Shown piece after piece: positions 5,631 through 60,475 of a stretch of DNA of 64,000 nucleotides. The notes under the pieces are model-generated. The model was not told the DNA's origin. It worked only from the letters and a program-made list of their open reading frames with translations, and made no database searches. The stretch is from Deltaproteobacteria bacterium (lineage in GTDB: Bacteria; JAGRBM01; JAHCIT01). Positions within the stretch are counted from its first letter, which is position 1, and each line of letters opens with the position of its first letter. The position numbers were made by a program, and so were the translations under genes. Location: positions 190,235-254,234 of the forward strand of contig JAHCIT010000006.1 in the NCBI GenBank assembly GCA_026129095.1, in the 5' to 3' direction.

Positions 5631-7007
5631 TTAGTGCGCCAAATCCCACCGGGCGAAAGGGAATTCAGCTTCGGAAGGGCACTCGGATGCCACATTCACC
5701 CGGCGGGGGTATATCAGGCAGGGGAATTGCGCTTCATCAGGGCAATGCGGTTCAAATCGAACCGCTACCGGCAGACGATGATCGTATTCCAGTATGTCGG
5801 TATGACGTACAACCGGTGGCCGGTTTATAACTGTCAGTCCACCGGCATCCCGGATCTTTTCCATACTGGCAGCCAGCAGGTTTCGGGCTTCGATATTCAA
5901 AAGGCCGCAACGCTGGTTTGTTGCAGCATCGCGCACATAGAGCCCTGCGTTCACCGCCAGCCACAGGCCAACACCAGCCATGACGGCTTTCCCGGCGAGT
6001 GGGGTGCGCTCGCGCACCCACTCAATCAAGGCACCGACAATCAGGATGGCACCAAAAGCCGCGGCATACTCGTAGCGAGGCTGCGCGATACCCCGGACGA
6101 TTACCGGGAACGACAAGAGCGCCATTACCCACACAATGCCCATCCGGGCAGCCGGGCTTCCCCTCCAGATTACCCATCCTGCGGCAGTGAACACACCCAG
6201 CGTCAATGCCAGCACCGGATACGGGCCTGGAAATCCTGACGGATTAACCAGCAGGAAAAGCCGGAGGATTGATCCTGCCAGCACCGGAAGGGCACTAACC
6301 CCTGCCACGCCCTCGGCCATGGCGCTTGCCGCATGAAGTGAGTCCGATCTCCAGACAGATACCACCAGCAAAGCGGCGTTCACCACCGCAAGTATCGCCA
6401 CCCATGCACCAAGCCGCGGCCATTCTGTTCGGCGGGCCAGGGCACACGCCGCAGTGGCCAGCACGGCGGGAAATAGAAGTGCGGATATCTTGAAGATCAT
6501 TGCCATAGCGGCAAGCCCAACTGCCGGCCAGAGCAGTCTGCCCCTGCTGATACCATTCATCCACAAGAGCAGCGACCCCAGGAGCAGCGTGGTCATCTGC
6601 ACTTCCAGGCTTCCAGCGGCCCATAGCACCGATTCGCTTCCTGGCCGGTGCATGACAAACAGGATGGGAAGCCAGAGGGCAATCGATCCGTCAAACATCC
6701 GCTTCGCCAGCAGGAAAACGAACACGCCGTTCAGTCCGTGCATGCAGGCAATCCATACCCGAACCCACCGGTACGGTTCCTCAGGGCTCAGCCAGATGGC
6801 GATTTTCCAGTAGGGTGGTACCGACGGATATGTTCCCAGTTTCCAGAACAGGATTTCAGTCCAGCTCCAGCTACGGGCGAAATTCGCACTATACAGGTCA
6901 TCGACGAGGAACCCTGGACCGCCACCGATCCAGATCAGTCCGGCAATGAAAAGGCCCGCCACGGCCACCCATACGGCTTTCAATCGCGGGTCTTCTCCGG
7001 AACACAC
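5631..7007 (-). CDS. Multi-TM GT-C (PMT/ArnT/TMTC-like) glycosyltransferase-like protein
   Basis: DD motif after first TM, H-x-x-N, VLWAA, K, YAAAFG; C-terminal Cys-containing soluble tail; paralog of 54137 and 55682. Confidence 0.6.
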   Translation of the reverse strand: MCSGEDPRLKAVWVAVAGLFIAGLIWIGGGPGFLVDDLYSANFARSWSWTEILFWKLGTYPSVPPYWKIAIWLSPEEPYRWVRVWIACMHGLNGVFVFLLAKRMFDGSIALWLPILFVMHRPGSESVLWAAGSLEVQMTTLLLGSLLLWMNGISRGRLLWPAVGLAAMAMIFKISALLFPAVLATAACALARRTEWPRLGAWVAILAVVNAALLVVSVWRSDSLHAASAMAEGVAGVSALPVLAGSILRLFLLVNPSGFPGPYPVLALTLGVFTAAGWVIWRGSPAARMGIVWVMALLSFPVIVRGIAQPRYEYAAAFGAILIVGALIEWVRERTPLAGKAVMAGVGLWLAVNAGLYVRDAATNQRCGLLNIEARNLLAASMEKIRDAGGLTVINRPPVVRHTDILEYDHRLPVAVRFEPHCPDEAQFPCLIYPRRVNVASECPSEAEFPFARWDLAH

Positions 7008-43792: not shown

Positions 43793-44419
43793 ATGGAAAC
43801 CATAACTGGCGAGGCCGCGACCTACGAGTCGATATTCCGCCACCCGAAGGTGCGTCTTGCACTTGCCGTGAGAGCATCGCTGCTGCCGGTGACAGCCGCA
43901 TCGCTCCCCGCTGGACTCCTGGTCGCCGCGATCTTCACGGTCGTAACCCGAAACCCCGAACACCTGCTGATGAAAGGGGTCACGGCTGCCTTCCTGTGCT
44001 GGGCAGCGGGCCTTCTGCTGTTTGCCCGCCAGAATCTCATGCGACTCAAACGTCTGGGCGAAGTAACCTACCGGTTCGACAGCGAGCGGTTCCGTCCGGA
44101 ACCCGGAAAGCCGGATTCCCCTGCCGGCTCACTGAATGAAATGGCCGAAGCCCTCAACCAGAACCGGCTTGACCCCATCCAGTTACCCGCCGACGGTTAC
44201 GTGCCTCATGAATACCGGACACGCGTCAACCGTATTCCCGCCTCGCGGCTGCTCATTGGCGGCCTCAGCCCTGTCCGCGATCTCTATATGGCGGGAGAAC
44301 TCGCTGCCGACGGCACACCGGTGTGGGATCTGCGGACCAAGCTGGTGAAGGAAATCGAGGACCGCGCATGGAAACTGGGCTCCCTCACCGACCCCGGCTG
44401 GCATACGAGACCGGGGTGA
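43793..44419 (+). CDS. Hypothetical membrane protein (2 TM)
   Basis: Two hydrophobic segments; fills the gap after pal; start 43778 or 43793. Confidence 0.55.
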   Translation: METITGEAATYESIFRHPKVRLALAVRASLLPVTAASLPAGLLVAAIFTVVTRNPEHLLMKGVTAAFLCWAAGLLLFARQNLMRLKRLGEVTYRFDSERFRPEPGKPDSPAGSLNEMAEALNQNRLDPIQLPADGYVPHEYRTRVNRIPASRLLIGGLSPVRDLYMAGELAADGTPVWDLRTKLVKEIEDRAWKLGSLTDPGWHTRPG

Positions 44420-44432
44420 CGAGAGGATAACC

Positions 44433-45194
44433 ATGCCGCCGCAGCCCCCTCAGTCCACATCCGACGATCCGGAGATACTGGAAGCCACCGGTTCTCTGCC
44501 GGCACCGAACCCGGACGTGCCGGGATTTCTCACCGCTGACCAGAAGCTCTACTGGGTGCTGGGGGCGGTATTCGTTTCCAGTTTGCTGGTGGGCGACATG
44601 ATCGGGGGGAAGTTTTTCTCGATTGCCGGGACGCGCCTGTCGGTGGGAATCATTCCCTTCCCTGTCACCTACGTGCTGACCGACGTCATCAACGAGTTTT
44701 ATGGCCGCCGGGGAGCCCGGTTCATCACCTTCGTGGCGGCGGCAATGGCCGTTTACGCCTACCTCATCCTCCAGATCGCCATCGCGCTGCCGGTAGCCGA
44801 TGGGTCTCCGATCCCGCAGGAGGCGTTCCAGACGGTATTCGGTTTCGGCCTCCGGCTGTTTGCGGCATCAATACTGGCCTTTCTGATTTCGCAACTGGTG
44901 GATATCGCTGCATTCGGCATGTTCAAAAGGCTCACACGCTCGCGGCACATCTGGCTGCGGGCGACGGGTTCCACGGCCATCTCGCAACTCGTGGACACGT
45001 TCGTCATCAACTTCGTGCTGCTGACGGGAACCATGACGACATTGGAAATCTGGCGCATCGTGCTGGACAGTTATCTTTACAAACTGATCGCTGCAGTTGT
45101 GCTGACGCCAGTAATCTATGCCCTGCATGGACTGGTCATCCATGTTTTCCGGATCCATCCCGAAGGAACTGTCCGCAGGGGAGAAGGTATCTAG
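44433..45194 (+). CDS. Queuosine precursor transporter (YhhQ/VUT family)
   Basis: FPVTYVLTDVINEFYG, SQLVD, WLRATGSTAISQLVDT. Confidence 0.88.
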   Translation: MPPQPPQSTSDDPEILEATGSLPAPNPDVPGFLTADQKLYWVLGAVFVSSLLVGDMIGGKFFSIAGTRLSVGIIPFPVTYVLTDVINEFYGRRGARFITFVAAAMAVYAYLILQIAIALPVADGSPIPQEAFQTVFGFGLRLFAASILAFLISQLVDIAAFGMFKRLTRSRHIWLRATGSTAISQLVDTFVINFVLLTGTMTTLEIWRIVLDSYLYKLIAAVVLTPVIYALHGLVIHVFRIHPEGTVRRGEGI

Positions 45195-45466
45195 GGGTTC
45201 TGCGGGAAGTAGTAGACGATCTCGCCCGGACGCACCATGCCGAGGTCATCACGCGCAATGCTCTCGATGTAGGCGTGATCCTTTTTCAGCCGCTCGCGTT
45301 CGGTTTCCAGACCTGCAATGCGGCCCCGCATTTCCTCGACGCGCTCGGCGGCACGGTCCAGTTCCCGCCGCTCATAAAACAGTTCCGATCCGGTCCTGGC
45401 CAGATTCCAAAGCAACGCGACAGAACCAACGGCCCCAATCGAGACAATGAACCAGCGTCGCCACAT
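45191..45466 (-). CDS. ftsB: Septum formation initiator FtsB/DivIC
   Basis: TM, coiled coil, YIESIARDDLGMVRPGEIVY. Confidence 0.88.
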   Translation of the reverse strand: MWRRWFIVSIGAVGSVALLWNLARTGSELFYERRELDRAAERVEEMRGRIAGLETERERLKKDHAYIESIARDDLGMVRPGEIVYYFPQNP

Positions 45467-45477
45467 AAACTGCGCCT

Positions 45478-45506
45478 AAAATACCGCTGTCGCCAGAGTC
45501 CGTCAA
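45478..45506 (-). promoter_or_regulatory. Sigma70 promoter of ftsB
   Basis: TTGACG-N17-TATTTT ending 11 nt before the ATG. Confidence 0.55.
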
Positions 45507-45585
45507 GACATTGATATGATTGAAGATATCCTGACTTCTACAACCGCTTCAGGAAGAGCGGAGATGGCAGAGCCTTGTCACAAGG

Positions 45586-45613
45586 AAAACGGGCGGCCTT
45601 TTGAGGCCGCCCG
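45586..45613 (-). terminator. Rho-independent terminator after the ferritin-like gene
   Basis: 10-bp stem CGGGCGGCCT/AGGCCGCCCG with 4-nt loop, followed by TTTT on the minus strand. Confidence 0.75.
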
Positions 45614-45634
45614 CTGCGAACCATCTGCCGGAAA

Positions 45635-46600
45635 CTAGGCCGTTGCCCAGTTGCGGATATTGGCTTCGGTTCCATCAGCGCTGGTCCACTGGGCCTCCTT
45701 GAGACCCTTCATGTTTTCCGTGGATGCCGCGCGGACAAACGAGAAGTCGATGCCTGTAGTGAGGTGGATCGCCTTTTCGAGTACCGTGCCAATGGCCGAT
45801 CCGACAGGACTTTCGAAAAACTCCACGGTCTCCTTGAAGTTCTTTACCGTGGGATTGTTCTTTACTTCCTCCCGGTCGTTGAACCTCCGGAGCCGCTTCA
45901 TCACTTCCTTCATTTGGTGATTGCCCGGATCAACGATCTGCATCGGCCGGAAAAACACGTCATTGAAGAACCCGGGGCCCCAGGCGAGCATTCCCCAGAA
46001 CTCCGGCTTAAGCCAGCCAGGAGTCTTGTCATCGCTTGCCCGCTTGCCGCGGTTCCTGGAGAAATACTCGGTCATGTAGAAGTCCATGGCGATATGGCGT
46101 GATTCGTCCTGGTTGATCCGTTCCACGACCTCGCGAGAGAGCGGATCATCCACATATTCATTAAGGCCACGGAGCAGCGCGATGTCGAGAATAAGCTCCC
46201 CGCCCAGGATGAACGACGTGGCAAAAGCCGGGTTGATCGTCTTTACCGCCTTCACGAATGACGGGATGAACTGGAGCATCCAGAGATTCGGTGTGTAGAA
46301 CTTGTAGTTGTGGACATTGAAATAGTCGGCAAGCTTGGCAGCCGCGATGCTGTGACGGACCTCGTCGGCGTGACACAGTTCGAATATCCGCTTGAGGCGC
46401 GGATCTTCAACCCGCTGCGACAGAGCGAGGAACAGGGCCCCCGCAAGACGCTCGATATAGGACATGTCGGTGTAGTACTGGCAAACCTGGAGCTCCTTCT
46501 CTTTCGAGAGAGGGATGGGCTTTTGCGCCCAGTCAAAACTGTTCACATTCCACTGGCCGCGTTCGCACTTCTCCACCATCTTGTCCAGATCCATCGCCAT
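45635..46600 (-). CDS. Ferritin-like diiron carboxylate protein (AurF/desaturase-like superfamily)
   Basis: E...DEVRH...E...DESRH ligand pattern; GAGGAG RBS. Confidence 0.8.
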   Translation of the reverse strand: MAMDLDKMVEKCERGQWNVNSFDWAQKPIPLSKEKELQVCQYYTDMSYIERLAGALFLALSQRVEDPRLKRIFELCHADEVRHSIAAAKLADYFNVHNYKFYTPNLWMLQFIPSFVKAVKTINPAFATSFILGGELILDIALLRGLNEYVDDPLSREVVERINQDESRHIAMDFYMTEYFSRNRGKRASDDKTPGWLKPEFWGMLAWGPGFFNDVFFRPMQIVDPGNHQMKEVMKRLRRFNDREEVKNNPTVKNFKETVEFFESPVGSAIGTVLEKAIHLTTGIDFSFVRAASTENMKGLKEAQWTSADGTEANIRNWATA

Positions 46601-46713
46601 CGCATTTCTCTCCTCAACGGGGGGCCTCGTCAGTGACGCACCCGTCATGTTTGTATTGTATCAGTTCGCCAGTTCCGATGCGCTTTGTCAGTACTCGGAG
46701 TTTCTATACAACC

Positions 46714-46727
46714 TGACCAATTGGTCG
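46714..46727. promoter_or_regulatory. TetR-type operator palindrome
   Basis: TGACC-AATT-GGTCG (perfect GACCAATTGGTC) just downstream of a candidate minus-strand promoter; IHF consensus TATCAACCTATTG at 46796-46808. Confidence 0.55.
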
Positions 46728-46942
46728 GTTAGCTGTATATAACTGGCCAAGCGATCAGCGCGCAAGGAAATAAATAGGGCAACATGGGGCTATTCTATCA
46801 ACCTATTGTAATTACTATTAAATTATATGATGCTATGCATCAAACAGCGTCCATCCAGGTATGGGCACCTGGGATTTCCCAAACGGCAGCCCCCGTTCAG
46901 AGAACTTTGCCGAGAAGCGTCATATAGGGGCATCCAAACCCC

Positions 46943-47734
46943 CTATTCTACATCCTTGAACTTCGCTGGCCGTTTCTGCATCCGGGCCATGAGGGCTTCC
47001 ATCTGGTTGGGACTGCCGATCAGTTTCATCTGAAGCTCGGCCTCGCGGCGGAGCACCTCGTCTACCGGGGCGCGCCAGTTGAACCTGAGCAGTTCCTTGC
47101 CTGCCCGGACTGCATGAGGATTGCGACCGGCAATTTCCCTGGCCAAGGCGAGTGCCTCCGTGAGCGGATCCTCGGCTGTCCGGGTCACGAGCCCGATCTG
47201 GGCAGCTTCGGCCCCGGAAACGATCTTGCCGGTCAGCGCCAGTTCCACTGCAACGTCATACCGCACCAGATCCCGCAACGTCGCGCTGCCGCTCATGTCG
47301 GGGATGAGTCCCAACTGGACCTCCATCACCGAGAGCCGGGCGTCCGGCCGGGCGAGGCGCACATCGGCCCCAAGCGCAACCTGAAGACCTCCGCCAAAGC
47401 AGGCGCCGTGAACAGCGGCGATTACCGGCATGGGCAGTTCACGCCATATCCATCCCGGCTTCTGGAACTGGTTCGCCGGTCCGTCCTTGGCCGCCATGGC
47501 CTCCTTAAGTGATGCCGGGTTGAACGCCGCGCCACCGACATCGAGGCCTGAGCAGAAGCTGGGGCCGTTGCCTGACATTACAACGGCCCGGACGGTCTTG
47601 TTGTCCCTCAGTGACTCCCCTGCCCGGTTGATCGCCTCAAACATCGCGGTGGAAAGCGCATTGTGCTTCTCCGGACGGTTGAGACGGACCTGCGCTACGC
47701 CACCGTCTATTTCGATCAGCACCAGTTCGGACAT
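46943..47734 (-). CDS. Enoyl-CoA hydratase/isomerase (crotonase) family
   Basis: LNRPEKHNAL, FCSGLD, PVIAAVHG.CFGGG, E..LGLIPD. Confidence 0.92.
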   Translation of the reverse strand: MSELVLIEIDGGVAQVRLNRPEKHNALSTAMFEAINRAGESLRDNKTVRAVVMSGNGPSFCSGLDVGGAAFNPASLKEAMAAKDGPANQFQKPGWIWRELPMPVIAAVHGACFGGGLQVALGADVRLARPDARLSVMEVQLGLIPDMSGSATLRDLVRYDVAVELALTGKIVSGAEAAQIGLVTRTAEDPLTEALALAREIAGRNPHAVRAGKELLRFNWRAPVDEVLRREAELQMKLIGSPNQMEALMARMQKRPAKFKDVE

Positions 47735-47754
47735 GAGTTCTGCTTCCTCCGGTT

Positions 47755-49134
47755 TCAGTGATTGAGATATCGTCTGGCTTCCCGGACGGCCTTCACACCG
47801 CTCCGCACGGCCGATTCCATCGTTGACGGAAGCTCCGTATCGGTCCAGTCGCCGGCGAGGAACAGGTTTTCGATGGGGGTCCGCTGCCTGCACCGGAGAT
47901 TCCTGAACCCCGGTACGCCGGAAAACGTCGCTGTGGGTTCACGCACGACACTCGAGTGGAGCAGCTTGAACTTTCGGCTCTCGGGATAGTGCTCATGGAT
48001 CGCCTCCATTGCCGTCTCCATGATCTGCGCGTTGGTTTTCGTCATCAGATCCCACGAAGCGCTCACGATCAGCGTATAGTAGTAGCGCCCCGGCATGCTT
48101 TCGCGGCCGTGCATGGCCGTCCGGTCAAATACCCACTCGACGGGGCAGTCGAGAATCCCTTCATATGAGTTCGTCATGTGGAGCCGCTGGTCATACCAGA
48201 GGTTGATGGCGACAATCGGCGCATCTTCGATACCGTTCACCCTGGCAAAAAACGGATCATCCTTCAGTGCCGTCGCGGCAATCAGGTTTTTCATCCCCTG
48301 CGGGGCAAGCGCCAGCAGATAGGCGTCAGCCGTCAGTTCCCTGCCGCTTTTCAGCAGGAACCGGGTGATCCGCTTGCTGTCGAGCTCCACCCCCGCCACG
48401 GCATCACCGATAATGATCTTCGCGCCGTGACCTTCCAGATACCTGGCCGATGGTGCCACGAACAGTTCGTCCAGCGGAACTGTCGGATATCCGAGACTCG
48501 CCCTGCCGCTACGGCCCGCCACGAAACCCCACCGGAGCAGTTGCGCGAGCAGGTGTGCACTCACCCTCCACGGCTTCTCGTTCAGGGTGGAAATCGTGAA
48601 GGTATCCCAGAAGGCGCGCCGCATGCCCGTTGTGAAACCCATTTCGTCGAACCATTCCTCGGCAGTCATGCGGTCCAGACGGTCGGGTATCTCCCCGGCA
48701 ACAACCGCCAGCTTTGGTAGCGAACGGAGGACTGCCAGCTTGTCGGCAAGTGTGAGGCTTTTCAGCCGCAGCATCCCGATCATGCCGGCAAGGGGCTGGA
48801 GCGGACCCGGCAGATTCGGCCCCCGGAGCCAGTGATCGCCGTACCGGCTGTCCTTGAAAAACGTCTGGAGCTGGTCCGGAAACCAGACCAGGTCGATGGT
48901 TCCAATGATGCGCAGGAATTCGAAAGTGTCCGTATAGGTCGTGGTGAGAACATGCTGGCCATTATCCACGAGATCGCCGGTCGTCTTGTCGCGGAAGGAA
49001 TACGTCCGGCCGCCCAGAAACGGTTTGGCCTCCACCAGCGTCACGGCATGGCCGTCTTTCGCCAGATGTACGGCGGCAGCGAGCCCCGACAGTCCGGAGC
49101 CCGCGACGACCACTTCTTTCCGTGCGCCGTGCAT
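47755..49134 (-). CDS. hpnE: HpnE-like FAD-dependent oxidoreductase (hydroxysqualene dehydroxylase family)
   Basis: GSGLSGL, LGGR..SF, DNGQH, LFLAGDWTDTELPSTMESAVRSG. Confidence 0.75.
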   Translation of the reverse strand: MHGARKEVVVAGSGLSGLAAAVHLAKDGHAVTLVEAKPFLGGRTYSFRDKTTGDLVDNGQHVLTTTYTDTFEFLRIIGTIDLVWFPDQLQTFFKDSRYGDHWLRGPNLPGPLQPLAGMIGMLRLKSLTLADKLAVLRSLPKLAVVAGEIPDRLDRMTAEEWFDEMGFTTGMRRAFWDTFTISTLNEKPWRVSAHLLAQLLRWGFVAGRSGRASLGYPTVPLDELFVAPSARYLEGHGAKIIIGDAVAGVELDSKRITRFLLKSGRELTADAYLLALAPQGMKNLIAATALKDDPFFARVNGIEDAPIVAINLWYDQRLHMTNSYEGILDCPVEWVFDRTAMHGRESMPGRYYYTLIVSASWDLMTKTNAQIMETAMEAIHEHYPESRKFKLLHSSVVREPTATFSGVPGFRNLRCRQRTPIENLFLAGDWTDTELPSTMESAVRSGVKAVREARRYLNH

Positions 49135-50882
49135 TACTCTCCTGTTTTCGGCTCACTGGCTGCTGGCGTTACCGGCGACACTGCCGGAAGGGGCCCTACG
49201 ACCTTCAGCTCACGAACGGGGCCTTCGGCCTCCTCACCTTCTGTTCCGGCCCACGGCGCATTCGGAACGCGTGGCTTTTTCCGGCGGTGACGCCTCCTCT
49301 CTCGCTGGCCTTCAGGCCGGGGACCGCCTGGCACCTGCCCCTGTTGCGACGACTGTCCACCCTGCGGTTTTGCTTCCCTGGGCGGTTGAGGCTTCTGCGC
49401 CGGTCTCGGAGGCGGCAGCGGCTGTTTCGGCCTTGGTCGTGGACGCGGCAGTGTATCGAGCTTCTCGATGGCGGCCTTCAGGCGATTCACCGCATCGGGA
49501 ACCTCTTCAGGCGCCAGATCCATCATGGACACGGCAAAATAGGGCGATTCGCCAAACTCCGGATCAAAAAGTTCACCCGGCCAGATGCCGATCCTGTGTT
49601 CGAGTGCCACATCGGCAAGCTGGTGCGTGGGTCGCCCGCTTCTCAGTTTCAGCCACAGGAAGTGCCCTCCACGCGGGGCATGGTACTCGACCAGTTCCTT
49701 CAGCCAGCCTTCGATCCCCTGGAGCCAGGCTTCGCGGCGCTTGCGCAGCATCACCCGGAGCCGGTCAAGGTAGACGTTCCATCCGGCATGGTTCAGCAGC
49801 CTCGCGGCAATCTCCTGCGGAATCCGCCCAGCACTGGCGCCGACCGTCTCCATGTACCGGACCAGCCGCTCCTTGATGGGCCCGGGCAGCGCCATTCCCG
49901 CCACCGGAAGCGTTGGCGAAACGAGCATTTCCAGATCGACCAGGTGGATCTTCATCAGGCCCGGCGGTGGCGGGATGGGCCGAGGTGGCGGAGCGCCATA
50001 GAACACCAGACGGTACGGGTCATCCTCTACCAGGATTACCCCGCGCCGGGCGCAAACCTCGGCGATCTCCTGCCGGCGGCGGTCAAACAGCACCGCGTCA
50101 TCAGGCTCGCGGTAGGTCGGATTGAGATAGACGAACCGGATGTCACCGGCCTGAAGTCGCCTGTCGAGTCCTCCCGGCGCAATACCATCGGCATCCGATC
50201 GGGCGACCTCAACCCGGGCGCCAGCCGACTTGAATGCATGAATGGCACGGGCGCGTGTGAGTGGCTCCACCAGAACCGTTGAACCGGGGTCGATCAGCGC
50301 TAGTGCCAGGAGTTTCAGCGAGTGCCCGACACCCTGTGTCACGAACATCTCGTTATCCGTGACCGGCAGCCCTTCACGGGTAAGGAGCCGTGCAAACCCC
50401 TCGCGAAGGGAAACGATACCGTCAACGGGAGCCTGCTCCATGAGCTGAACAGCCTTGGGGAGTCCCGCGATGGCCTCGACCCAGACGGGGTCGCGCTCGA
50501 CTTCCTTCACACCATGCACGCCGAGCGGCACCAGTACACCTTCCGCCCCTTTTACCTTGCTGATCCATTCCTTCAGCGGATCGCGGCGCGGCATCCCGGT
50601 GTTGAGCGTCCGGGCAAACTGAACCTGCGGTCCGCGTGGCGCATCCGGCAACTGGCGCCGGGGATCACCCCGTTCCTCACGCTGCACCTCCGGCCGGGGC
50701 CCACCCTTGCGATCGCGGCCGCGGCGGCGATTGCGGTTTCGGCCCTCACGCGAAGGCCGGTCGCCGCGGGGCGAACCGGTTGCCAGTGTTCCTTCAGCTC
50801 GCACTCCGGGTTGCACGGCAGGAGTTGCTACCGGAGGAGTCGCTGGAGCTGGCGGCGTGTTGTTCTGCTGTTCGTCACTCAT
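49134..50882 (-). CDS. Degenerate class I/II aminotransferase-fold protein with Arg/Pro-rich disordered termini
   Basis: G...LRE, LIDPG.TVLVE, ILVEDDPY, GG.FLWL and PGE.F are retained; the SFSK PLP-lysine motif reads DLEM. Confidence 0.8.
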   Translation of the reverse strand: MSDEQQNNTPPAPATPPVATPAVQPGVRAEGTLATGSPRGDRPSREGRNRNRRRGRDRKGGPRPEVQREERGDPRRQLPDAPRGPQVQFARTLNTGMPRRDPLKEWISKVKGAEGVLVPLGVHGVKEVERDPVWVEAIAGLPKAVQLMEQAPVDGIVSLREGFARLLTREGLPVTDNEMFVTQGVGHSLKLLALALIDPGSTVLVEPLTRARAIHAFKSAGARVEVARSDADGIAPGGLDRRLQAGDIRFVYLNPTYREPDDAVLFDRRRQEIAEVCARRGVILVEDDPYRLVFYGAPPPRPIPPPPGLMKIHLVDLEMLVSPTLPVAGMALPGPIKERLVRYMETVGASAGRIPQEIAARLLNHAGWNVYLDRLRVMLRKRREAWLQGIEGWLKELVEYHAPRGGHFLWLKLRSGRPTHQLADVALEHRIGIWPGELFDPEFGESPYFAVSMMDLAPEEVPDAVNRLKAAIEKLDTLPRPRPRPKQPLPPPRPAQKPQPPREAKPQGGQSSQQGQVPGGPRPEGQRERRRHRRKKPRVPNAPWAGTEGEEAEGPVRELKVVGPLPAVSPVTPAASEPKTGE

Positions 50883-50946
50883 TCGTTATTACCTGGGCCA
50901 CTGCCTGGCTTTCTCATGCCACTTCGTTGCGTCATGGAGCAAGTTC

Positions 50947-51435
50947 TCATTTGCTCCACGGGGAGGGGGGATACGGATCAGCGATGGTCTGGGGCCGCCG
51001 GGGCAGCAGCACACGTCTCCGGAGGACCAGCACCTTTTCGGATTTCTGGTTCCATGCACGGGTCTCCACGTAAATGATTCCCCGGTCGCTCTTGGTCGTG
51101 GAGGGGATCACGTCCAGCACCTCGGTTTCGGCATACAGCGTGTCGCCGTGGAAAGTGGGGCCCATATGCTTCACGGTTTCATATTCGAGATTTGCAATAC
51201 AGATTTCCGACACGTCCTTCACGCTCATCCCGACGACGATTGAAAAGACGAGGGTGCCGTTGACCAGCCGTTGCCCATGCTGCGACTTCGAGCCCCAGTA
51301 GGCATCAAAATGCAGGGGATTCGTGTTCATCGTCAGCAGCGTGAACCAGGTGTCGTCCGCCTCGGTGACAGTCCGCCCCGGCCAGTGCCGGATCACTTCA
51401 CCCCTGGCGAAATCCTCGAAGTATTTCTGGGCCAT
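50947..51435 (-). CDS. MaoC-family dehydratase
   Basis: YFEDF, RTVTEAD, NPLHFD, PTFHGDTL. Confidence 0.9.
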   Translation of the reverse strand: MAQKYFEDFARGEVIRHWPGRTVTEADDTWFTLLTMNTNPLHFDAYWGSKSQHGQRLVNGTLVFSIVVGMSVKDVSEICIANLEYETVKHMGPTFHGDTLYAETEVLDVIPSTTKSDRGIIYVETRAWNQKSEKVLVLRRRVLLPRRPQTIADPYPPSPWSK

Positions 51436-51448
51436 GCCGGAGCATCCT

Positions 51449-52624
51449 CTAGTCGATCGAATACCGTTTCCTGATCTGCCGGGCGATTACCGTCTGGAGA
51501 ATCTCGTTCGTCCCTTCGCCGACGGTCATCAATGGTGCATCCCGGTAGTACCGCTCAACATCGAACTCGCTGGTATACCCGTAACCGCCGTGGAGCTGGA
51601 TGCCCTCGAACGAGTGCCGTGCACAGGCCGATGATGCAAACAGCTTGGCCATGCCGCTTTCCAGATCACATCTCTGGCCCCGGTCTTTCTTCCGGGCGGC
51701 GTCGAGCGTCAAAAGCCGCGCCGCCTGCAGATCCGTCTGCATGAACGCCAGTTTCTGCTGGACGAGCTGGTGCTCGATGAGAGGCTTTCCGAATGTCACG
51801 CGCTCCTGCGCATATCTGGCCGAATCCTCGAAGATGGCCCGCAACACACCCACGGCCCGGGCAGCCACGTTGATACGGCCTGTCTCCAGGCCGTCCATCA
51901 CCTGATAGAAGCCCTTGCCTTCCGACCCGCCTACGAGGTTTGCCGCCGGGACGCGGACATTCTCGAAGGTGAGCTCGCAGGTTTCTATCCCCTTGTAACC
52001 CAGCTTCTTGATATTCCTGCTCACGGTAAAGCCGGGGTCACCCTTTTCGAATATGAACGCGCTGATTCCCTTGTAGGCCGGATCAGTGTTCATGTCGGTT
52101 TTCACAACAAGCAGATAGGTGTTTCCGTACGAGCCGTTCGTGATCCACATCTTCGAGCCGTTCACGATGTAGTGGTCACCAGCTTTAACGGCCCGGCAGC
52201 GGATTCCTGCGACGTCGGATCCTCCTTGCGCCTCTGAAAGCGCCAATCCGCCACGCATCTCGCCGGTGGCAAACCGGGGCAGGTATTTCCTTTTCTGGTC
52301 CTCGGTCCCGTAGTTTTTCACCACATAGGCCATGATGAGATGCGTGTTGATAAACCCCGACAGCGACATCCAGACACGCGATAGTTCCTCATTAATGAGG
52401 GCATAAGTGTAGTAGTCGAGACCCAGGCCCCCGTATTCGGCCGGTATCGTCGCCCCGAACAGACCGAGCCTTTTCAGTCCATCCACGAACTCCGCGGGAT
52501 ACTCGTCGGCGTGCTCGTAGTGCTGGACCTTGGGCTTCACATCCTTTTCCAGCCAGCGGCGGATGGCATCCAGCAGCGCCCGCTGGTCCTCGTTCATCAG
52601 CGTTTCGTCAATCGCACGTTGCAT
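51449..52624 (-). CDS. Acyl-CoA dehydrogenase
   Basis: ALSE..GGSD, NGSKMWITNG, R.TFGK, QLHGGYGY, GEGTNEI. Confidence 0.95.
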   Translation of the reverse strand: MQRAIDETLMNEDQRALLDAIRRWLEKDVKPKVQHYEHADEYPAEFVDGLKRLGLFGATIPAEYGGLGLDYYTYALINEELSRVWMSLSGFINTHLIMAYVVKNYGTEDQKRKYLPRFATGEMRGGLALSEAQGGSDVAGIRCRAVKAGDHYIVNGSKMWITNGSYGNTYLLVVKTDMNTDPAYKGISAFIFEKGDPGFTVSRNIKKLGYKGIETCELTFENVRVPAANLVGGSEGKGFYQVMDGLETGRINVAARAVGVLRAIFEDSARYAQERVTFGKPLIEHQLVQQKLAFMQTDLQAARLLTLDAARKKDRGQRCDLESGMAKLFASSACARHSFEGIQLHGGYGYTSEFDVERYYRDAPLMTVGEGTNEILQTVIARQIRKRYSID

Positions 52625-52700
52625 GGGATTCCGGGAGACTCCTCGCCCCTTGCAGGGGCCGGAGAACTTAGGGGAACCGGGGGCCGGAGGGCAAACTCCC

Positions 52701-54023
52701 TCAGCCGAATACCAGATCCACCTTGATGCCGAACTCGTCGGCCTTTTTCTTGAACCGGGGCGCCTGGGAGATCAGGAAGGCAAACACGTCAAAATGAGGA
52801 TCAAACATCTTCGACATGCCCTCGAAGGTCGCGTAGGCGACCGAGATCATCGTAGCGTCGGAATCGAACGGCATGCGGTACTTGAAGGCGAGCTGGAAGG
52901 TTCGCATCATCATCTCGCCGAACTCGATCTCGCTGTGCTTGCGGCCGCGCATCATGTCCAGCACTCCATCGATATCACGGGTAAAGGCCCTGAACTCCTC
53001 CGGTGTGCCAGGAAAGCCGTAGGCCTCGTCGAGCGCAGCAGCCATCTTCTCGGCGCTCAGCCCCCAGAGGGCAAAATTCACCTTGTAATGGCTCAGGAGG
53101 TATGTGGGCTTGATCTGGGTGATCAGCCCCAGATCGATCATCACGACACCGCCATCCGGCTGGAACCACAGGTTGCCGGGGTGCATGTCGGAGTGGATGA
53201 AAAGGTCTTCGAAGGCCATCTTGATATAAACCTCGAAGAGCCGCTTGGCCATTTCAGTGGGTGACAGCGCCAGCTTGCCCGGCGCGGTTACCTCCTCGAT
53301 CCGCGCCCCGCGGACGAACTCCATCGTGAGGACTTCCTCGGAGCAGAACTCCGCATAGAGCTTCGGAATCTTCATCCACTGAACACCGGCGAAGTTCTTC
53401 TGGAACCGGCGGTTGTTTTCGGCCTCGACCCGGAGGTCGGTCTGGGCACGAATCGCCGCGCCGAACTCGGCGACCTGCTTGCCTGCCTGCGCCAGCGTAA
53501 TGACCGGCAGCCGGTCCAGTATCCAGGCGAAAAATCCGGCAATGGCGAGATCACGGTCCACCTGCTCGCGGATATTCGGCCGGAGGACCTTGACTGCCAC
53601 CTCCTCGCCGGACTTGAGATGCGCATGATGTACCTGTGCCACGCTGGCGGCAGCAACCGGCACATTGTCGAAGTCAGCATAGATATCCGCGATCGGGCGT
53701 CCGAAGTTGCGCCGAACTGCTTCCTCAACCTTCCGGAACGGAAACGGGGGGACCCGGTCCTGCAAGTGCTTCAGCTCCCCAACCAGATCGGGGGGCAGGA
53801 GATCGGGCCGGGATGATAAAATCTGCCCCAGCTTGATGAAGGTTGCTCCCATCCGCTGAAGCAGCATGCGCAGCGAACGGTATATTTTCCGGTTCCGCCA
53901 CTCGATGCGCTTTTCGCGTGTCGGACCACCCACGAACCATCCGGCAACCCGGTAAAACAGGAATTGAAACAGGAAAACGGTGACCTGCAGATAAAGCCGC
54001 ACCGCATTGAGCAGCGTCTTCAT
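52701..54023 (-). CDS. ABC1/UbiB (AarF) family atypical kinase
   Basis: FIKLGQILSSRPD, AAASVAQVH, VAVKV.RP, HSDMHPGN, IDLG. Confidence 0.92.
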   Translation of the reverse strand: MKTLLNAVRLYLQVTVFLFQFLFYRVAGWFVGGPTREKRIEWRNRKIYRSLRMLLQRMGATFIKLGQILSSRPDLLPPDLVGELKHLQDRVPPFPFRKVEEAVRRNFGRPIADIYADFDNVPVAAASVAQVHHAHLKSGEEVAVKVLRPNIREQVDRDLAIAGFFAWILDRLPVITLAQAGKQVAEFGAAIRAQTDLRVEAENNRRFQKNFAGVQWMKIPKLYAEFCSEEVLTMEFVRGARIEEVTAPGKLALSPTEMAKRLFEVYIKMAFEDLFIHSDMHPGNLWFQPDGGVVMIDLGLITQIKPTYLLSHYKVNFALWGLSAEKMAAALDEAYGFPGTPEEFRAFTRDIDGVLDMMRGRKHSEIEFGEMMMRTFQLAFKYRMPFDSDATMISVAYATFEGMSKMFDPHFDVFAFLISQAPRFKKKADEFGIKVDLVFG

Positions 54024-54136
54024 AGGAACCACAAAACTCCGGACCGGCCTTATTAAGGGTTCCCTGTATATTAGGCAAATGAAGCAGCCCCGTGCATTTC
54101 TTCCGGCGGGAAGCCCCTCTATCCTTGTCCCCACAC

Positions 54137-55612
54137 ATGAGGAAGTGGCTTCAACGGGTAGTGGATTTCCTTGAGGAACTGCTCGACATCCCCTCTTCCG
54201 CCTGGAAGTGGCTGGCGCCCACCCTGCTCGTCTCCATCATTGCCCTCGGATGGCTGCTCTACCCGCTGGGGATACACGCCGACGACTATCTGGAGGCCCT
54301 CACGGCCCGCCGTTCCGGCTGGAAGCAGTTGCTGACCTTCCAGGGAGCCCCAGTTCCGCTGCTGCTGTCGGTGTGGAAACTGGCCCTCCCATTCAGTGAC
54401 GGACCGCCGTCAGGCATCCTGAGAGTTGCAGCGGCTACCGTGCACATAATCAATTCGGTCCTGGTTTATGCAGCTCTGTGTGGCATCTTCTCCAGGTATA
54501 CGCGGCTCGCGGCGGCTATGACTTTTTTCGCCTATCGCGGCGGCAACTGGGTGCTGCTCTGGGCAGCGACTTTCAAGGACGCACTAATGACCCTGTTTGT
54601 CCTGCTGGCGGTCATCCTGTGGCGGCGCGGGATGGAACACCCACGCTGCCGGCTCTGGGCCAGCCTGCCCGCTGCCGCCGCCATGATGTGCAAACCCACT
54701 GCCATCGTGCTCGCGCCGCTGCTGCTACTCCACCAGCTCTGGATGGAGGACCGCGATAGCTGGACCCTTCGCTTGCAAAAGGCTGCCGGCGGGCTGCTAC
54801 TCGTTTCCTCCGTTCTGGGCGCCCTCCTGGCCAATGCGCTTCTCAACCCCGGTATCTGGTCCGGTTACACACCGGGCCGCGGCCTGCCGGACATCGAATA
54901 CGCCCCGCTCTATCTGGCCGGAATGTATAGCTACCTGGCGGCTTGGTCCCTGCTGCCGGTCAGTCCAGATCTGGATATCCAGAGCCAATCGTGGCTCGCG
55001 GCCTCAGGCTTCATCATCATCTGCGGAATCGCTGCCGCGTTTTTCCGTTTCGACAGGATGGTGAAATGGGGAATTGCCTGGCATGCCGCCTTCACCGCCC
55101 TTCCCCTTTATGCCAACGGAGGCATGCCCTCGCCGCACTATTCCTACGCAGCGGCATTCGGGCTAACGCTGGCAGTATTCCGCGCTGGTGGTCTCGTTTA
55201 CAGGCGGAGCTCAGGTGCCCGGCCGGCCATTCTGGTGGTGGGAATACTCTGGCTGGCGGGCACACTGGTCCATTGGCCGTCCGATCTGAGGCTTTTTCAC
55301 CGCATGGGCAAGGCAGGCCAGGATGCACGCCATGTGATCCTGGCTCATAAAGATGACGTGCTGGCATCCGGCAGGGTATATGCGACGAGCCCACATCCAC
55401 GCCTGCTCCCGCTTATGACAGTTAACAGCCACCTTTTCGAGTTTGAGCTGGGCAATCCAGTCAGAGTCGTCCACCCGCAATCGCCCGCCTGTCCGGCAAC
55501 CGATGGCATTCCCTGCCTGTACCTGGCACATTCAAAAGCCGAGTTAGCCGCCTGCACCAGTAACGCTGCCGATAGCTGCATGATATGGACGCCCGCCACC
55601 CGTAATCCTTAA
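54137..55612 (+). CDS. Multi-TM GT-C-like glycosyltransferase, tandem paralog 1
   Basis: HADDY, WKL, H..NS, VLLWA, CK, HYSYAAAFG, Cys-containing C-terminal tail. Confidence 0.65.
   Translation: MRKWLQRVVDFLEELLDIPSSAWKWLAPTLLVSIIALGWLLYPLGIHADDYLEALTARRSGWKQLLTFQGAPVPLLLSVWKLALPFSDGPPSGILRVAAATVHIINSVLVYAALCGIFSRYTRLAAAMTFFAYRGGNWVLLWAATFKDALMTLFVLLAVILWRRGMEHPRCRLWASLPAAAAMMCKPTAIVLAPLLLLHQLWMEDRDSWTLRLQKAAGGLLLVSSVLGALLANALLNPGIWSGYTPGRGLPDIEYAPLYLAGMYSYLAAWSLLPVSPDLDIQSQSWLAASGFIIICGIAAAFFRFDRMVKWGIAWHAAFTALPLYANGGMPSPHYSYAAAFGLTLAVFRAGGLVYRRSSGARPAILVVGILWLAGTLVHWPSDLRLFHRMGKAGQDARHVILAHKDDVLASGRVYATSPHPRLLPLMTVNSHLFEFELGNPVRVVHPQSPACPATDGIPCLYLAHSKAELAACTSNAADSCMIWTPATRNP
54587..54857 (+). 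repeat. 271-bp direct repeat, copy 1
   Basis: Identical by eye to 56132-56402 (offset 1545). Confidence 0.9.
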
Positions 55613-55681
55613 AAGCGCAAGCCGGGAAACCAAACGGTTTCTTCCGGCGGAAGTCCACACTATTCTTTTCCAACCAGACAG

Positions 55682-57157
55682 ATGGCGAACCACTCCCTCC
55701 ATGCAGGAGCTTCCCTGAAAGAGTTCCTCGATATACCTGCTTCCGCGTGGAAATGGCTGGCACCAATGGCCCTTATCGCTGGCATCCTGCTGGCGTGGCT
55801 GGTCTATCCTTTGGGCCTCCACTGCGACGATTACTGGGAGGCCCTCGTTGCCCGCCAGATCTCCTGGCTGGAGTTGCTGACTTTCCAAGGCGCACCCATT
55901 CCCATTCATCTTGGTATCTGGAAGCTGGCATTGCCTTTCAGCGAGGGCCCCCCGTCCGGGATACTCCGGGCCGTATCGGTATTCGTGCATGTGGCGAATT
56001 CGATCCTTGTGTATTCCGCCCTTCGCGACCTGTTTTCCCGGCAAACCAGGGTTGCTGCCGCGTTTGCATTTTTGGCCTACCGGTGTGGCAACACGGTCCT
56101 GTTCTGGGCTCCGACCCTGAAGGATTCCCTGATGACCCTGTTTGTCCTGCTGGCGGTCATCCTGTGGCGGCGCGGGATGGAACACCCACGCTGCCGGCTC
56201 TGGGCCAGCCTGCCCGCTGCCGCCGCCATGATGTGCAAACCCACTGCCATCGTGCTCGCGCCGCTGCTGCTACTCCACCAGCTCTGGATGGAGGACCGCG
56301 ATAGCTGGACCCTTCGCTTGCAAAAGGCTGCCGGCGGGCTGCTACTCGTTTCCTCCGTTCTGGGCGCCCTCCTGGCCAATGCGCTTCTCAACCCCGGTAT
56401 CTACTCCGATCATTCGGCTGGAGTAACGATGCCTGCCGTTGAATCTGTCCCGCTGTATCTTCTCGGCCATTTCAACAACTACGCGGCCTGGTCGCTACTG
56501 CCCGTCATTCCAGACCTGGGGATTCTCAGCCACGCGTGGATTTCGGTTGCCGGTACCCTGCTCTTTTTCGGAGCGGCCGCCGGGTTTTTCTGGTTTGACC
56601 GGAAAGTGAAATGGGGAATCGCCTGGTACACGGCTTTTGTGCTGCTTCCTCTATACGCCAACGGCGGCTCGCCCGCACCCCACTATTCCTATGCCGCTGC
56701 ATTTGGCCTGCTGCTCGCCATATTTCGGTCAGGACAAATCCTGCTGGCCCATATACCGCAGATGCAGCCGGTAGTTCTGGCTGCCGGACTTATCTGGCTT
56801 ACCGCAACGACATTCCACTGGCCCAGCGACCTGCGCCATTTTCGCGTCGCCGGAAAGGTGGGACTGGATACCCGGCACCAGCTTATCCTTCACCAGAACG
56901 AACTGCTGGATGCTGGGTCATACTACCTCACCGGTGCCAAACTCCCCCTGCCGCCGCTACTTGTGGCTGAAACCCGCATGATCGAGTTCGATCTGGGTCA
57001 GACGCTCCAGACCCGGCGTCCCCCGAACGGCGAGTGTCCCCATGAGAATGCATACCCCTGTATCAGCATGATCTCGAAAATATCGGATGCTTATGCCTGC
57101 GCCGATACACCTCCGGGCGGGTGCATTACCTATGTATCCGCACGTCGATCTCCTTAA
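55682..57157 (+). CDS. Multi-TM GT-C-like glycosyltransferase, tandem paralog 2
   Basis: HCDDY, WKL, H..NS, VLFWA, CK, HYSYAAAFG, Cys-containing C-terminal tail. Confidence 0.65.
   Translation: MANHSLHAGASLKEFLDIPASAWKWLAPMALIAGILLAWLVYPLGLHCDDYWEALVARQISWLELLTFQGAPIPIHLGIWKLALPFSEGPPSGILRAVSVFVHVANSILVYSALRDLFSRQTRVAAAFAFLAYRCGNTVLFWAPTLKDSLMTLFVLLAVILWRRGMEHPRCRLWASLPAAAAMMCKPTAIVLAPLLLLHQLWMEDRDSWTLRLQKAAGGLLLVSSVLGALLANALLNPGIYSDHSAGVTMPAVESVPLYLLGHFNNYAAWSLLPVIPDLGILSHAWISVAGTLLFFGAAAGFFWFDRKVKWGIAWYTAFVLLPLYANGGSPAPHYSYAAAFGLLLAIFRSGQILLAHIPQMQPVVLAAGLIWLTATTFHWPSDLRHFRVAGKVGLDTRHQLILHQNELLDAGSYYLTGAKLPLPPLLVAETRMIEFDLGQTLQTRRPPNGECPHENAYPCISMISKISDAYACADTPPGGCITYVSARRSP
56132..56402 (+). 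repeat. 271-bp direct repeat, copy 2
   Basis: Identical by eye to 54587-54857. Confidence 0.9.
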
Positions 57158-59003: not shown

Positions 59004-60143
59004 ATGAAATCCGGCACAGCAATCAAGCCATCTCTCCGGACCTGCAGCGTCTGCGGTAAGCCCTTTGAACTCCAGTTCAGCTTCCAGCATCGAACCGAAG
59101 ACGGCGCCGAACATTACTACTGCAGTTCGGCGTGCCTGCTCGAAGAATCTTCCACTGGTCCGAAACTGATCGATGTCGACACCGGAGAGCCGGTTTCCAC
59201 CCGCGACGACAGCTCCGTGCAGTGCGATCACTGCAAGCGCCAGTTCAAGATTGCCTACCTTGGCCAGCTGGTCGTGGCGGGTTCCAGAACTCGCCGCGTG
59301 TGCAGCCCTGAATGTCGCGCCGCCATAGTGAAAACCGTCACGTCGAAACACCGGGTCCACCGGATCGCGGTGATGAACCAGAAGGGCGGCACCGGAAAAA
59401 CGACAACCTCGGTCACCTTGGCAGCGGGCCTTGCCGCGAAAGGTCACCGCGTGCTCCTCGTTGATATGGATTCGCAGGGGAATGTGGGTGCCTCGCTAGG
59501 CGTCCGGGGCGAAAAGTCGATCTATCATGTCCTGATCGACTCCATTCCCCCGCAGGAAGCTTCCGTCCCCGTCCGTCCCGGCCTTGATGTCATTACATCG
59601 GACGAGACAGTCGCCGCTGCCGAGATCCGCCTCGTGAACATGAAGCGCCGCGAGCGTCTCCTCCGCCAACGTCTCGAAGGTCTGGGCGACTATGACTATG
59701 TGGTACTGGACTGCGCACCGAGCCTTTCCATCGTCAACCAGAACGCGCTCACTTTCGCCGAAAGCGTGCTGATCCCGGTGTCGTGCGACTTCCTCGCCAT
59801 GTATGGCGTAAAGCAGATACTCCGGACCATCCGCTACGTGCGGGAACAGCTTATGCACCCGATCGAGATACTCGGCGTCCTGCCCACCTTCTACGATCCG
59901 CGCGCACGGATCACCCATGACGTCGTGGCCAGCCTGAAGGACTACTTCAAGGACCAGATGTTCCAGCCAATCCGCGCAAACTCGAAGCTGAAGGAAGCCC
60001 CGTCCTACCGGAAAACCATCTTTGAATACGACCCGAAGTGCCCCTCGGCGCTCGACTACCAGGCCCTGGTAGACAGCGTGGTGGAGCGCCTCCGGTCCAG
60101 AAACGAAAACCCACGCCCGCAAGCTGCGGGCGCTACCGCCTGA
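59004..60143 (+). CDS. ParA/Soj-family ATPase with two N-terminal Cys4 (TRASH/MYM-like) fingers
   Basis: CxxC...CSxxC twice; NQKGGTGKTT, DMDSQGN, LDCAPS, L.EAPS. Confidence 0.9.
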   Translation: MKSGTAIKPSLRTCSVCGKPFELQFSFQHRTEDGAEHYYCSSACLLEESSTGPKLIDVDTGEPVSTRDDSSVQCDHCKRQFKIAYLGQLVVAGSRTRRVCSPECRAAIVKTVTSKHRVHRIAVMNQKGGTGKTTTSVTLAAGLAAKGHRVLLVDMDSQGNVGASLGVRGEKSIYHVLIDSIPPQEASVPVRPGLDVITSDETVAAAEIRLVNMKRRERLLRQRLEGLGDYDYVVLDCAPSLSIVNQNALTFAESVLIPVSCDFLAMYGVKQILRTIRYVREQLMHPIEILGVLPTFYDPRARITHDVVASLKDYFKDQMFQPIRANSKLKEAPSYRKTIFEYDPKCPSALDYQALVDSVVERLRSRNENPRPQAAGATA

Positions 60144-60184
60144 GGGCGGCACAACCCCAACCCCCAACGGAGACCCGAACGCAC

Positions 60185-60475
60185 ATGGAACACAAGAAGC
60201 ACGAAGCCCTCGCGATGGCGCCCGCCCTGGGACGCAACCCGCTGACCGAAGACGTCATGGAGCGGACCTTTTACCGGCCTGCGCGTGACGACGGCGAGGA
60301 CAAGCCCACCCATTACAAGATCGTGTCAATCTCCTTGTACCTTGAGGACATCGATCTGCTGAACCGGATGGTCGCCGATCTCAAGGCCAAGGGGCATACC
60401 AAGGCGAACAAAAGCGCGCTCATTCGCGCCGCCCTGCGCCAGTGCGATCTGGACAAGGTGCCGAAGAACATCTGA
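60185..60475 (+). CDS. Small putative ribbon-helix-helix protein, candidate ParA partner
   Basis: Flexible N-terminus with ALGRNPL; KIVSISL beta strand, helix, NKSALIRAAL helix; GGAG RBS. Confidence 0.7.
   Translation: MEHKKHEALAMAPALGRNPLTEDVMERTFYRPARDDGEDKPTHYKIVSISLYLEDIDLLNRMVADLKAKGHTKANKSALIRAALRQCDLDKVPKNI

Follow-up and report, generated by a model that had tools for sequence, protein, structure and literature searches.

A gene on the minus strand of a 64,000-nucleotide stretch of DNA from a Deltaproteobacteria bacterium (assembly GCA_026129095.1, contig JAHCIT010000006.1, positions 190,235 to 254,234; the whole stretch is called the window here, and coordinates are counted from its first letter) encodes what is very likely a real and selected pseudoenzyme, free of the cofactor pyridoxal 5'-phosphate (PLP). 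The gene runs from 50882 to 49134 and its product of 582 amino acids is referred to as P0001. Its core is predicted to have an aminotransferase fold, the cofactor and substrate residues of that fold have been replaced, and disordered tails are predicted at both ends. By analogy with known systems, the likeliest role of the protein, at a probability of roughly 45%, would be that of a dimeric nucleic-acid-binding scaffold.

An earlier reading of the DNA letters without database searches (the sequence-only reading) had described an uninterrupted reading frame of this length with a series of altered aminotransferase motifs. Translation bore this out, as the frame has zero internal stops and every motif named was found where it had been placed. 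The start pattern M-[ST]-[ED]-E is common to the orthologues of P0001, and the GC content at third codon positions is 0.68, compared with 0.71-0.78 in nine other genes of the window.

Loss of the cofactor and substrate site

The residues of the P0001 pocket were compared with those of 266 non-orthologous hits collected from two protein searches. The Lys motif SFSK reads DLEM in P0001 (residues 316-319; 49926..49937), with the Lys replaced by Met319 (codon ATG) and the two Ser by Asp and Glu. Because the HMMER alignment of P0001 with Thermus thermophilus LysN (2egy) contains no gap across this motif (IHLVDLEMLVSPTLPVA against IYLGSFSKVLSPGLRVA), the change from Lys to Met is not an alignment artefact. 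Lys is present at column 319 in 264/266 of the non-orthologues. The same number carry the phosphate-binding Arg at column 326, which is Pro in P0001 (TLPVA for GLRLG, residues 324-328; 49899..49913), and the substrate-carboxylate Arg at column 450, which is Ala (AVSM for RLSF, residues 450-453; 49524..49535). Asn at column 259 (257/266) is Glu in P0001, where QNPTG reads REPDD (residues 258-262; 50097..50111), while Ser at column 318 (254/266) is Glu and Ser or Thr at column 316 (263/266) is Asp. Column 210, the site of the ring-stacking Tyr, is Tyr in 238 of the 266 and Arg in none of them, and it is Arg in P0001 (LTR for PTY; 50253..50255) and in all its orthologues. The positions that would hold the phosphate are occupied by Asp316, Glu318, Pro326 and Val185. 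The cross-subunit Tyr of the QY motif is also gone, with zero Tyr in residues 134-160 in all five family sequences, and the KQxxD segment is replaced. In Escherichia coli AlaA the corresponding residues make the Schiff base, bind the phosphate (with a Tyr supplied by the other subunit), pack against the ring and contact the carboxylate of the substrate (excerpts of PMC4094517); these roles were mapped onto P0001 by motif and not by direct alignment with AlaA.

The sequence-only reading had listed most of these replacements, the lost QYG and PTY tyrosines among them, and the alignments agree with it. It had also held that only EDDPY (residues 286-290; 50013..50027) survives. That is true of Asp287, the Asp that faces the pyridine nitrogen, which is retained in 5/5 family sequences and is the sole pocket residue kept family-wide, but Tyr290 of the same motif is Phe in every other orthologue. 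A substitute for the missing Lys was looked for because B6 enzymes without it exist (ColD, E1 and SpnQ). Position 319 is Met in 5/5 sequences, no Lys is common to residues 305-332, and no orthologue has Lys or His in the Lys column; His313 sits on the preceding strand, outside that column. Of the outcomes that the sequence-only reading had named as refuting it, none of those open to computation occurred. From these residues it follows that a PLP aldimine would be unable to form, and that the phosphate cup and the ring-stacking and substrate residues are lost. Non-covalent binding of pyridoxamine 5'-phosphate (PMP) is also disfavoured, since two carboxylates and a Pro now occupy the phosphate site and Arg has replaced the stacking aromatic residue. 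Loss of both covalent and non-covalent B6 binding is very likely.

The two non-orthologues that also lack the Lys are P0175 (442 amino acids), which has Thr in its place, and P0223 (491 amino acids). The latter, a MocR protein that carries a GntR domain, reads SLEF where SFSK is expected and RDP where QNP is expected, and His takes the place of its phosphate Arg. It was the one of the two to enter the trees, where it is placed apart from the P0001 family, and it represents a parallel erosion.

Fold of the core

The only Pfam match of P0001 is PF00155, at 30.6 bits against a cut-off of 19.7 (E 2.6e-7). The nearest NCBIfam models are MppQ and MocR-type regulators, every one of them far under its cut-off, and the best sequence matches in the PDB are MppQ (8tn2, E 2e-30) and LysN (E 7e-26). 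A structure predicted with AlphaFold2 from a 150-row alignment has a block predicted local distance difference test score (pLDDT) of 84-98 at residues 101-480 and below 50 for most of residues 1-97 and 512-569. Superposition of residues 89-479 of this model onto residues 7-397 of LysN (2z1y_B) gave a Z of 45.7 and a root-mean-square deviation of 2.5 over 385 aligned residues, and Foldseek was in agreement. The core (residues 86-478; 49449..50627), as delimited by HMMER and the structure match, includes a LysN-like N-terminal arm that aligns from residue 89, with pLDDT below 50 up to residue 97. P0001 retains 30 of the 50 positions that are at least 85% conserved in canonical relatives, mostly structural Gly, Pro, Leu and Arg. 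The modelled core is that of the LysN/MocR subfamily of aminotransferases, and the earlier assignment to class I/II enzymes of the MocR or 2-aminoadipate transaminase type is upheld by PF00155 and by the LysN superposition.

The fold is thus shared with the LysN/2-aminoadipate aminotransferase subfamily (T. thermophilus LysN, 2egy and 2z1y; MppQ, 8tn2; Pyrococcus horikoshii PH0207) over 385 residues. However, P0001 differs from that subfamily in lacking the Lys, both Ser, the phosphate Arg, the stacking Tyr, the Asn, the carboxylate Arg and the cross-subunit Tyr, and in having gained about 190 amino acids of disordered tails.

Orthologues and selection

A protein search returned a near-identical copy, P0002, followed by P0003 (577 amino acids, 70% core identity) and P0004 (611 amino acids, 69%), after which the matches dropped to about 30% identity. 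An exhaustive search of a 50%-identity library of 1.84 billion representatives gave a single cluster at 643 bits, with the next at 142. In GTDB genomes, three loci were recovered out of 50 pattern matches: L001, which encodes P0004; L003, which encodes a 650-amino-acid orthologue; and L002, a partial locus whose product is nearly identical to P0003. A profile built from five family sequences found, at E 1e-40, the same three clusters and no others (among 8000 candidates scored, lengths 216-1138). The number of orthologues is a lower bound, as the L003 protein was missed by both the protein and the profile searches, and these searches left out forms beyond their length limits, metagenome contigs, viral contigs and cluster membership lists. 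The family set consists of about five sequences, four of full length and one partial, from one uncultured and narrow lineage.

The altered site is shared throughout this set. D[LF]EM, REPDD, Arg210 and Pro326 are present in 5/5 sequences and Ala450 in the four of full length, and these residues were held through synonymous codon changes (for example, CGC and AGG for Arg210). Nei-Gojobori estimates over the core gave nonsynonymous distances (dN) of 0.09-0.21, synonymous distances (dS) of 1.05-2.49 and a ratio of about 0.05-0.14 in 6/6 pairs, figures that are rough as dS is near saturation. Used as controls, ubiB gave about 0.14-0.16 and the acyl-CoA dehydrogenase gene about 0.03-0.11, which puts the P0001 core near the former and above the latter. 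P0001 and P0002 differ at 12 positions, 11 of them in the tails. Across the family, 208/331 core positions are invariant, most densely in segments 201-300 (70/100) and 368-478 (76/111). Of the canonical positions, 17 are lost throughout the orthologues, and 13 of these are fixed in a single new state, many of them charged; against a background of 0.59 this is not a significant excess of conservation in the remodelled pocket (binomial p 0.11).

By these estimates the gene is kept intact by purifying selection, and the proposal that a catalytically dead protein has been maintained agrees with the sharing of both the Lys loss and the tails by the orthologues and with a dN/dS well below 1. A gene in decay that has yet to gain a stop would fit the identity of only about 30% to the nearest canonical proteins and the long stem branch to the family (1.65-1.71 changes per column). 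However, the frame is open in all four full-length sequences at near-saturated synonymous distance, the invariant core positions are many, and the low core dN/dS refutes decay, which has a negligible probability. A change of function, and not decay, would be expected to leave such a long stem branch with strong constraint thereafter.

Long open frames also run antisense to the family genes (49122-50282 on the plus strand of the window; 9656-11494 of L001 and 9638-11551 of L003 on the minus strand). Similar frames overlie the dehydrogenase and ubiB genes, and these are probably shadow frames of GC-rich DNA.

Disordered tails

The N tail of P0001 (residues 1-85; 50628..50882) is rich in Arg, Gly, Asp, Glu and Pro. 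It contains 17 Arg, has a net charge of +7 and a block pLDDT of 31-47, and includes the stretch GRNRNRRRGRDRKGG (50700..50744). The C tail (residues 479-582; 49137..49448), of about 104 amino acids and net charge +10, consists of a Pro/Gln-rich linker, a basic patch and an acidic end, with a block pLDDT mostly of 35-51 past residue 510. The patch lies in the stretch RRRHRRKKPR (49269..49298), and together with the motif that follows it, RRRHRRKKP and then R[VI]P[ND]APW, it spans 49251..49298. This arrangement recurs 38-58 residues before the end in 4/4 full-length sequences, where the C tail is 107-144 amino acids long counted from IEKL and is again Pro/Gln-rich. An N tail of 73-114 amino acids with 17-24 Arg, many Gly, Pro, Asp and Glu, and at most 8% hydrophobic residues is present in 5/5 family sequences. 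Within the window, P0001 is the only one of 47 genes with such tail regions, and its C-tail patch is the strongest basic 12-mer (net +8) among them; a C extension of at least 60 amino acids was found in only 1/266 non-orthologues. The tails thus appear to be family-specific and selected for as a feature. The sequence-only reading had described Arg-rich tails of about 90-100 amino acids. They are predicted to be disordered and are Arg-rich, but their lengths are 85 and about 104, and they are of mixed charge and not purely basic.

The tails may resemble those of Rho and of DEAD-box proteins. The C-terminal region of RNase E offers a similar arrangement, in which an oligomeric folded core carries unstructured arms with Arg-rich patches and short partner-binding motifs, and the disordered Arg-rich arms bind RNA (excerpts of PMC9037510). 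However, the likeness is compositional only, no homology was detected, and the P0001 core is not an RNA enzyme.

Relationship to MocR regulators

No GntR winged helix-turn-helix domain (PF00392) was found in P0001 by Pfam, and its N tail is predicted to be disordered. A winged-helix profile matched 64 of 270 collected proteins, and none of P0001, P0003 and P0004 was among them. MocR/GabR-type regulators are nevertheless a non-catalytic use of the same domain. They differ from P0001 in carrying the winged helix-turn-helix, and also in retaining the PLP Lys and Asp and binding PLP (excerpts of PMC6677901), where P0001 has Met319.

As to ancestry, the LysN-like N-terminal arm kept in the model speaks for a stand-alone origin, and several other results place P0001 closer to MocR proteins. 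It scored 260 bits against a profile of 42 MocR hits and 238 bits against one of 93 stand-alone hits, and its interdomain helix contains 6 Lys/Arg, a feature of 45% of 64 MocR proteins and 10% of 202 stand-alone hits. Free trees placed it among the MocR rows, both with FastTree (113 rows) and with IQ-TREE (44 rows, and then 34 after ten were dropped, including the long rows P0130, P0223 and P0170). However, a stand-alone origin was not rejected by the approximately unbiased test (p 0.688), and the constrained tree was 6.3 log units better. The earlier statement that P0001 is not a MocR regulator therefore holds for the protein of today, which has no winged helix-turn-helix, but as to ancestry the test does not separate a stand-alone LysN-like origin from a MocR protein that lost its DNA-binding domain.

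Predicted dimer

The homodimer predicted for residues 86-480 scored 0.44, compared with 0.00 for the best of three controls, on a scale whose mark was reached by 20/30 solved pairs and 1/23 single chains. The runs agreed in at least 87% of contacts, with pLDDT of at least 88. In the dimer model, the invariant Met148 of one chain contacts Leu325 and Pro326 of the other, and this contact would lie in the former place of the phosphate-holding Tyr and Arg.

Gene neighbourhood

The conserved gene order is ubiB, acyl-CoA dehydrogenase, maoC and the P0001 gene, all on the minus strand in the window. The block begins with an ABC1/UbiB atypical kinase (52701..54023; present in 2/2 loci long enough, 76-80% identity), followed by the acyl-CoA dehydrogenase (51449..52624; 3/3 loci, 87-90%) and a MaoC-family (RipB/Ich-like) dehydratase (50947..51435; directly upstream of the family gene in 3/3 loci, 88-92%).

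The next gene downstream of P0001 on the same strand is hpnE (47755..49134), which passes the HpnE cut-off (TIGR03467, 358.8 bits against 283.05) and whose ATG overlaps the P0001 TAA by 1 nucleotide (TAATG), as the sequence-only reading had noted. It had further treated this coupling as a functional feature, which did not hold. The gene after the orthologue in L001 and L003 is a convergent sigma-54 response regulator, L002 ends within the orthologue gene, and hpnE is thus downstream in 0/2 readable related loci; its position is particular to this genome, and a functional link to it was rejected. A 1-nucleotide overlap is also found at tolQ/tolR in the window, and 4-nucleotide overlaps at three other pairs, and the P0001/hpnE overlap is ordinary operon packing. 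With a linkage of 0/2 loci, membership of P0001 in a hopanoid (hpnCDE) operon was not found, nor did short motifs reveal a squalene synthase or cyclase in the 64-kb window. A scan of 45300-54400 gave two promoter-like sites against 2.6 expected, and zero minus-strand terminator-like sites between the P0001 gene and hpnE. Rfam had 0 matches over 44000-55000 of the window.

P0001 and P0004 both end in KTGE (49134-49148 of the window; about 11525-11539 of L001), with a gene directly behind only in the window. The KTGE codons include an AGGAG-like site ahead of the hpnE start, and this end may reflect an older coupling to hpnE that was lost in L001, or may be a C-terminal motif. The hpnE gene itself was found without hpnC, hpnD or a cyclase motif in the window; the nearest named relatives of its product are in a Bdellovibrionota metagenome-assembled genome (61%) and then in Nocardia (about 41%), and three further proteins are 75-76% identical. 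These three are encoded on contigs of 137,635, 105,731 and 37,360 nucleotides, none of which matches the L001 or L003 contig in length, and they may be the HpnE proteins of those same genomes, encoded elsewhere.

Other genes of the window and loci were also recorded. AurF-like ferritin-fold proteins are encoded within about 7 kb of the family gene (45635-46648 of the window, 2455-3363 of L001 and 3059-4006 of L003), and because they lie on different sides and are only 33% identical they are paralogues and not conserved neighbours. At 59004-60475 a ParA-family ATPase begins with a zinc-finger (zf-FCS-like) region, and after it comes a small protein that matches no Pfam family; the arrangement is presumably typical of Myxococcota-like bacteria. 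Two tandem GT-C-type membrane glycosyltransferase genes at 54092-57157 are partly near-identical, with a long identical central stretch, and a third similar gene is at 5631-7007.

Discussion

In the model proposed here, P0001 is a pseudoenzyme that arose from the LysN/MocR branch of the class I/II aminotransferases and is confined to one lineage. Its core would still pair into the usual two-fold dimer, now serving as a rigid centre from which four flexible arms extend. Nucleic acid would be bound, with little preference for sequence, by the N arms rich in Arg, Gly and Asp and by the basic patch of the C tail, and a protein partner would dock on the conserved R[VI]P[ND]APW motif. The nucleic acid bound would more likely be RNA than DNA, judged from the composition of the tails, from which alone we infer RNA binding. 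The protein would then act without catalysis, as a scaffold that binds RNA or has a regulatory role, and its gene would be co-transcribed with ubiB, the acyl-CoA dehydrogenase gene and maoC, with hpnE as a genome-specific passenger. A more specific version, tentative and somewhat doubtful, is that the dimer is possibly a former MocR protein that traded its DNA-binding domain for arms and became a four-armed hub that binds RNA or forms condensates, its own pocket sealed, with Arg210 filling the place of the ring and Asp316 and Glu318 that of the phosphate.

Several observations weigh against a nucleic-acid-binding scaffold. The net charge of the tails across the family is modest (+3 to +7 for the N tail and +5 to +10 for the C tail) and the core is neutral. 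It is the composition of the tails that is conserved and not their sequence, with 14/85 positions invariant in the N tail and 0/38 in the last 38 residues, and a feature search of the Atlas with the N tail gave no usable match. Nor are there RNA genes among the conserved neighbours, which encode CoA/lipid enzymes and a kinase. The dimer score is barely above its mark, and the pass may stem from likeness to solved LysN dimers. The predicted interface is also no more invariant than the rest of the core (20/44 against 210/349, p 0.07, in the opposite direction).

A rival reading is a non-catalytic, protein-binding subunit or regulator of the UbiB kinase, acyl-CoA dehydrogenase and MaoC protein, with tails and APW motif that would dock or tether these proteins, anionic lipids or acyl-CoA. 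The window and L001/L003 share the four-gene block but have different flanks on both sides of it, the order dehydrogenase, maoC and family gene holds in 3/3 loci, and the intergenic gaps of 76, 13 and 64 nucleotides suggest a single transcript. However, the four genomes belong to one narrow lineage in which synteny may simply be inherited order, and no homologue of the family was found beside such enzymes outside the lineage in the exhaustive library and GTDB genome searches, which leaves this explanation rather unlikely. The old pocket could also have taken on a new PLP-independent task, such as binding a small molecule or metal or forming a new catalytic site, for which Arg210, Arg258, Glu259, Asp261, Asp262, Asp287, Asp316, Glu318 and His407 are candidates. 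The fixation of 13/17 lost positions in new, often charged states despite synonymous codon turnover is in its favour, as is the high invariance of segments 201-300 and 368-478. However, as noted above, that fixation does not significantly exceed the background, and the same residues could merely fill and seal the cavity through salt bridges; a new pocket seems unlikely.

Two further possibilities come from relatives that function without the Lys. According to the excerpts available, such members either help the active site of a partner or use His with PMP. Serratia Ser4 (SerTA; excerpts of PMC11726168) and eukaryotic LCB1/SPTLC1 (excerpts of PMC3794620) are functional fold-type-I chains of the first kind, and Arg191* and Asn189* of Ser4 bind the PLP phosphate in the site of its partner. 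P0001 could by this precedent be the inactive half of a hetero-oligomeric aminotransferase, as in Ser4/Ser5 and LCB1/LCB2, completing the site of a Lys-bearing paralogue, and its fold and dimer-forming helices are intact in the model. However, the residues to be donated should persist in such a subunit, and the QY Tyr is gone in 5/5 sequences and KQxxD is replaced. No aminotransferase partner lies beside the gene in the window or in the listed reading frames of L001 and L003. Ser4 is also truncated and sits beside its partner gene, whereas P0001 is of full length with basic tails and has lost the cross-subunit Tyr. The helper role is accordingly improbable. The 3-dehydratases ColD, E1 and SpnQ are active aminotransferase relatives that lack the Lys, carry a catalytic His in its position and bind PMP, and they show that Lys loss alone is no proof of death (excerpts of PMC8987622). 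The retention of Asp287 would be compatible with an enzyme of this kind, but position 319 is Met and not His, and the phosphate and stacking positions have been replaced as described, and a B6-dependent P0001 is highly improbable. The nucleic-acid-binding scaffold remains the preferred reading.

Across the superfamily the PLP Lys and Asp usually count as invariant, with sporadic Lys loss noted in assembly-line domains (excerpts of PMC3870968). Fold-type-I chains without the Lys are therefore already known. Searches of the open-access literature found no stand-alone form of full length that combines basic tails with erasure of the whole site, and no account of the P0001 family or of a dead aminotransferase that binds RNA. 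The family has had its entire cofactor and substrate site erased, has gained conserved disordered arms, and is under constraint about as strong as that on the neighbouring kinase, which makes it a clear natural example of an enzyme fold put to non-catalytic use. Automatic annotation by PF00155 would mislabel P0001 as an aminotransferase. If the proposed role is true, a dead metabolic enzyme would here have given rise to a new type of RNA-binding protein in bacteria.

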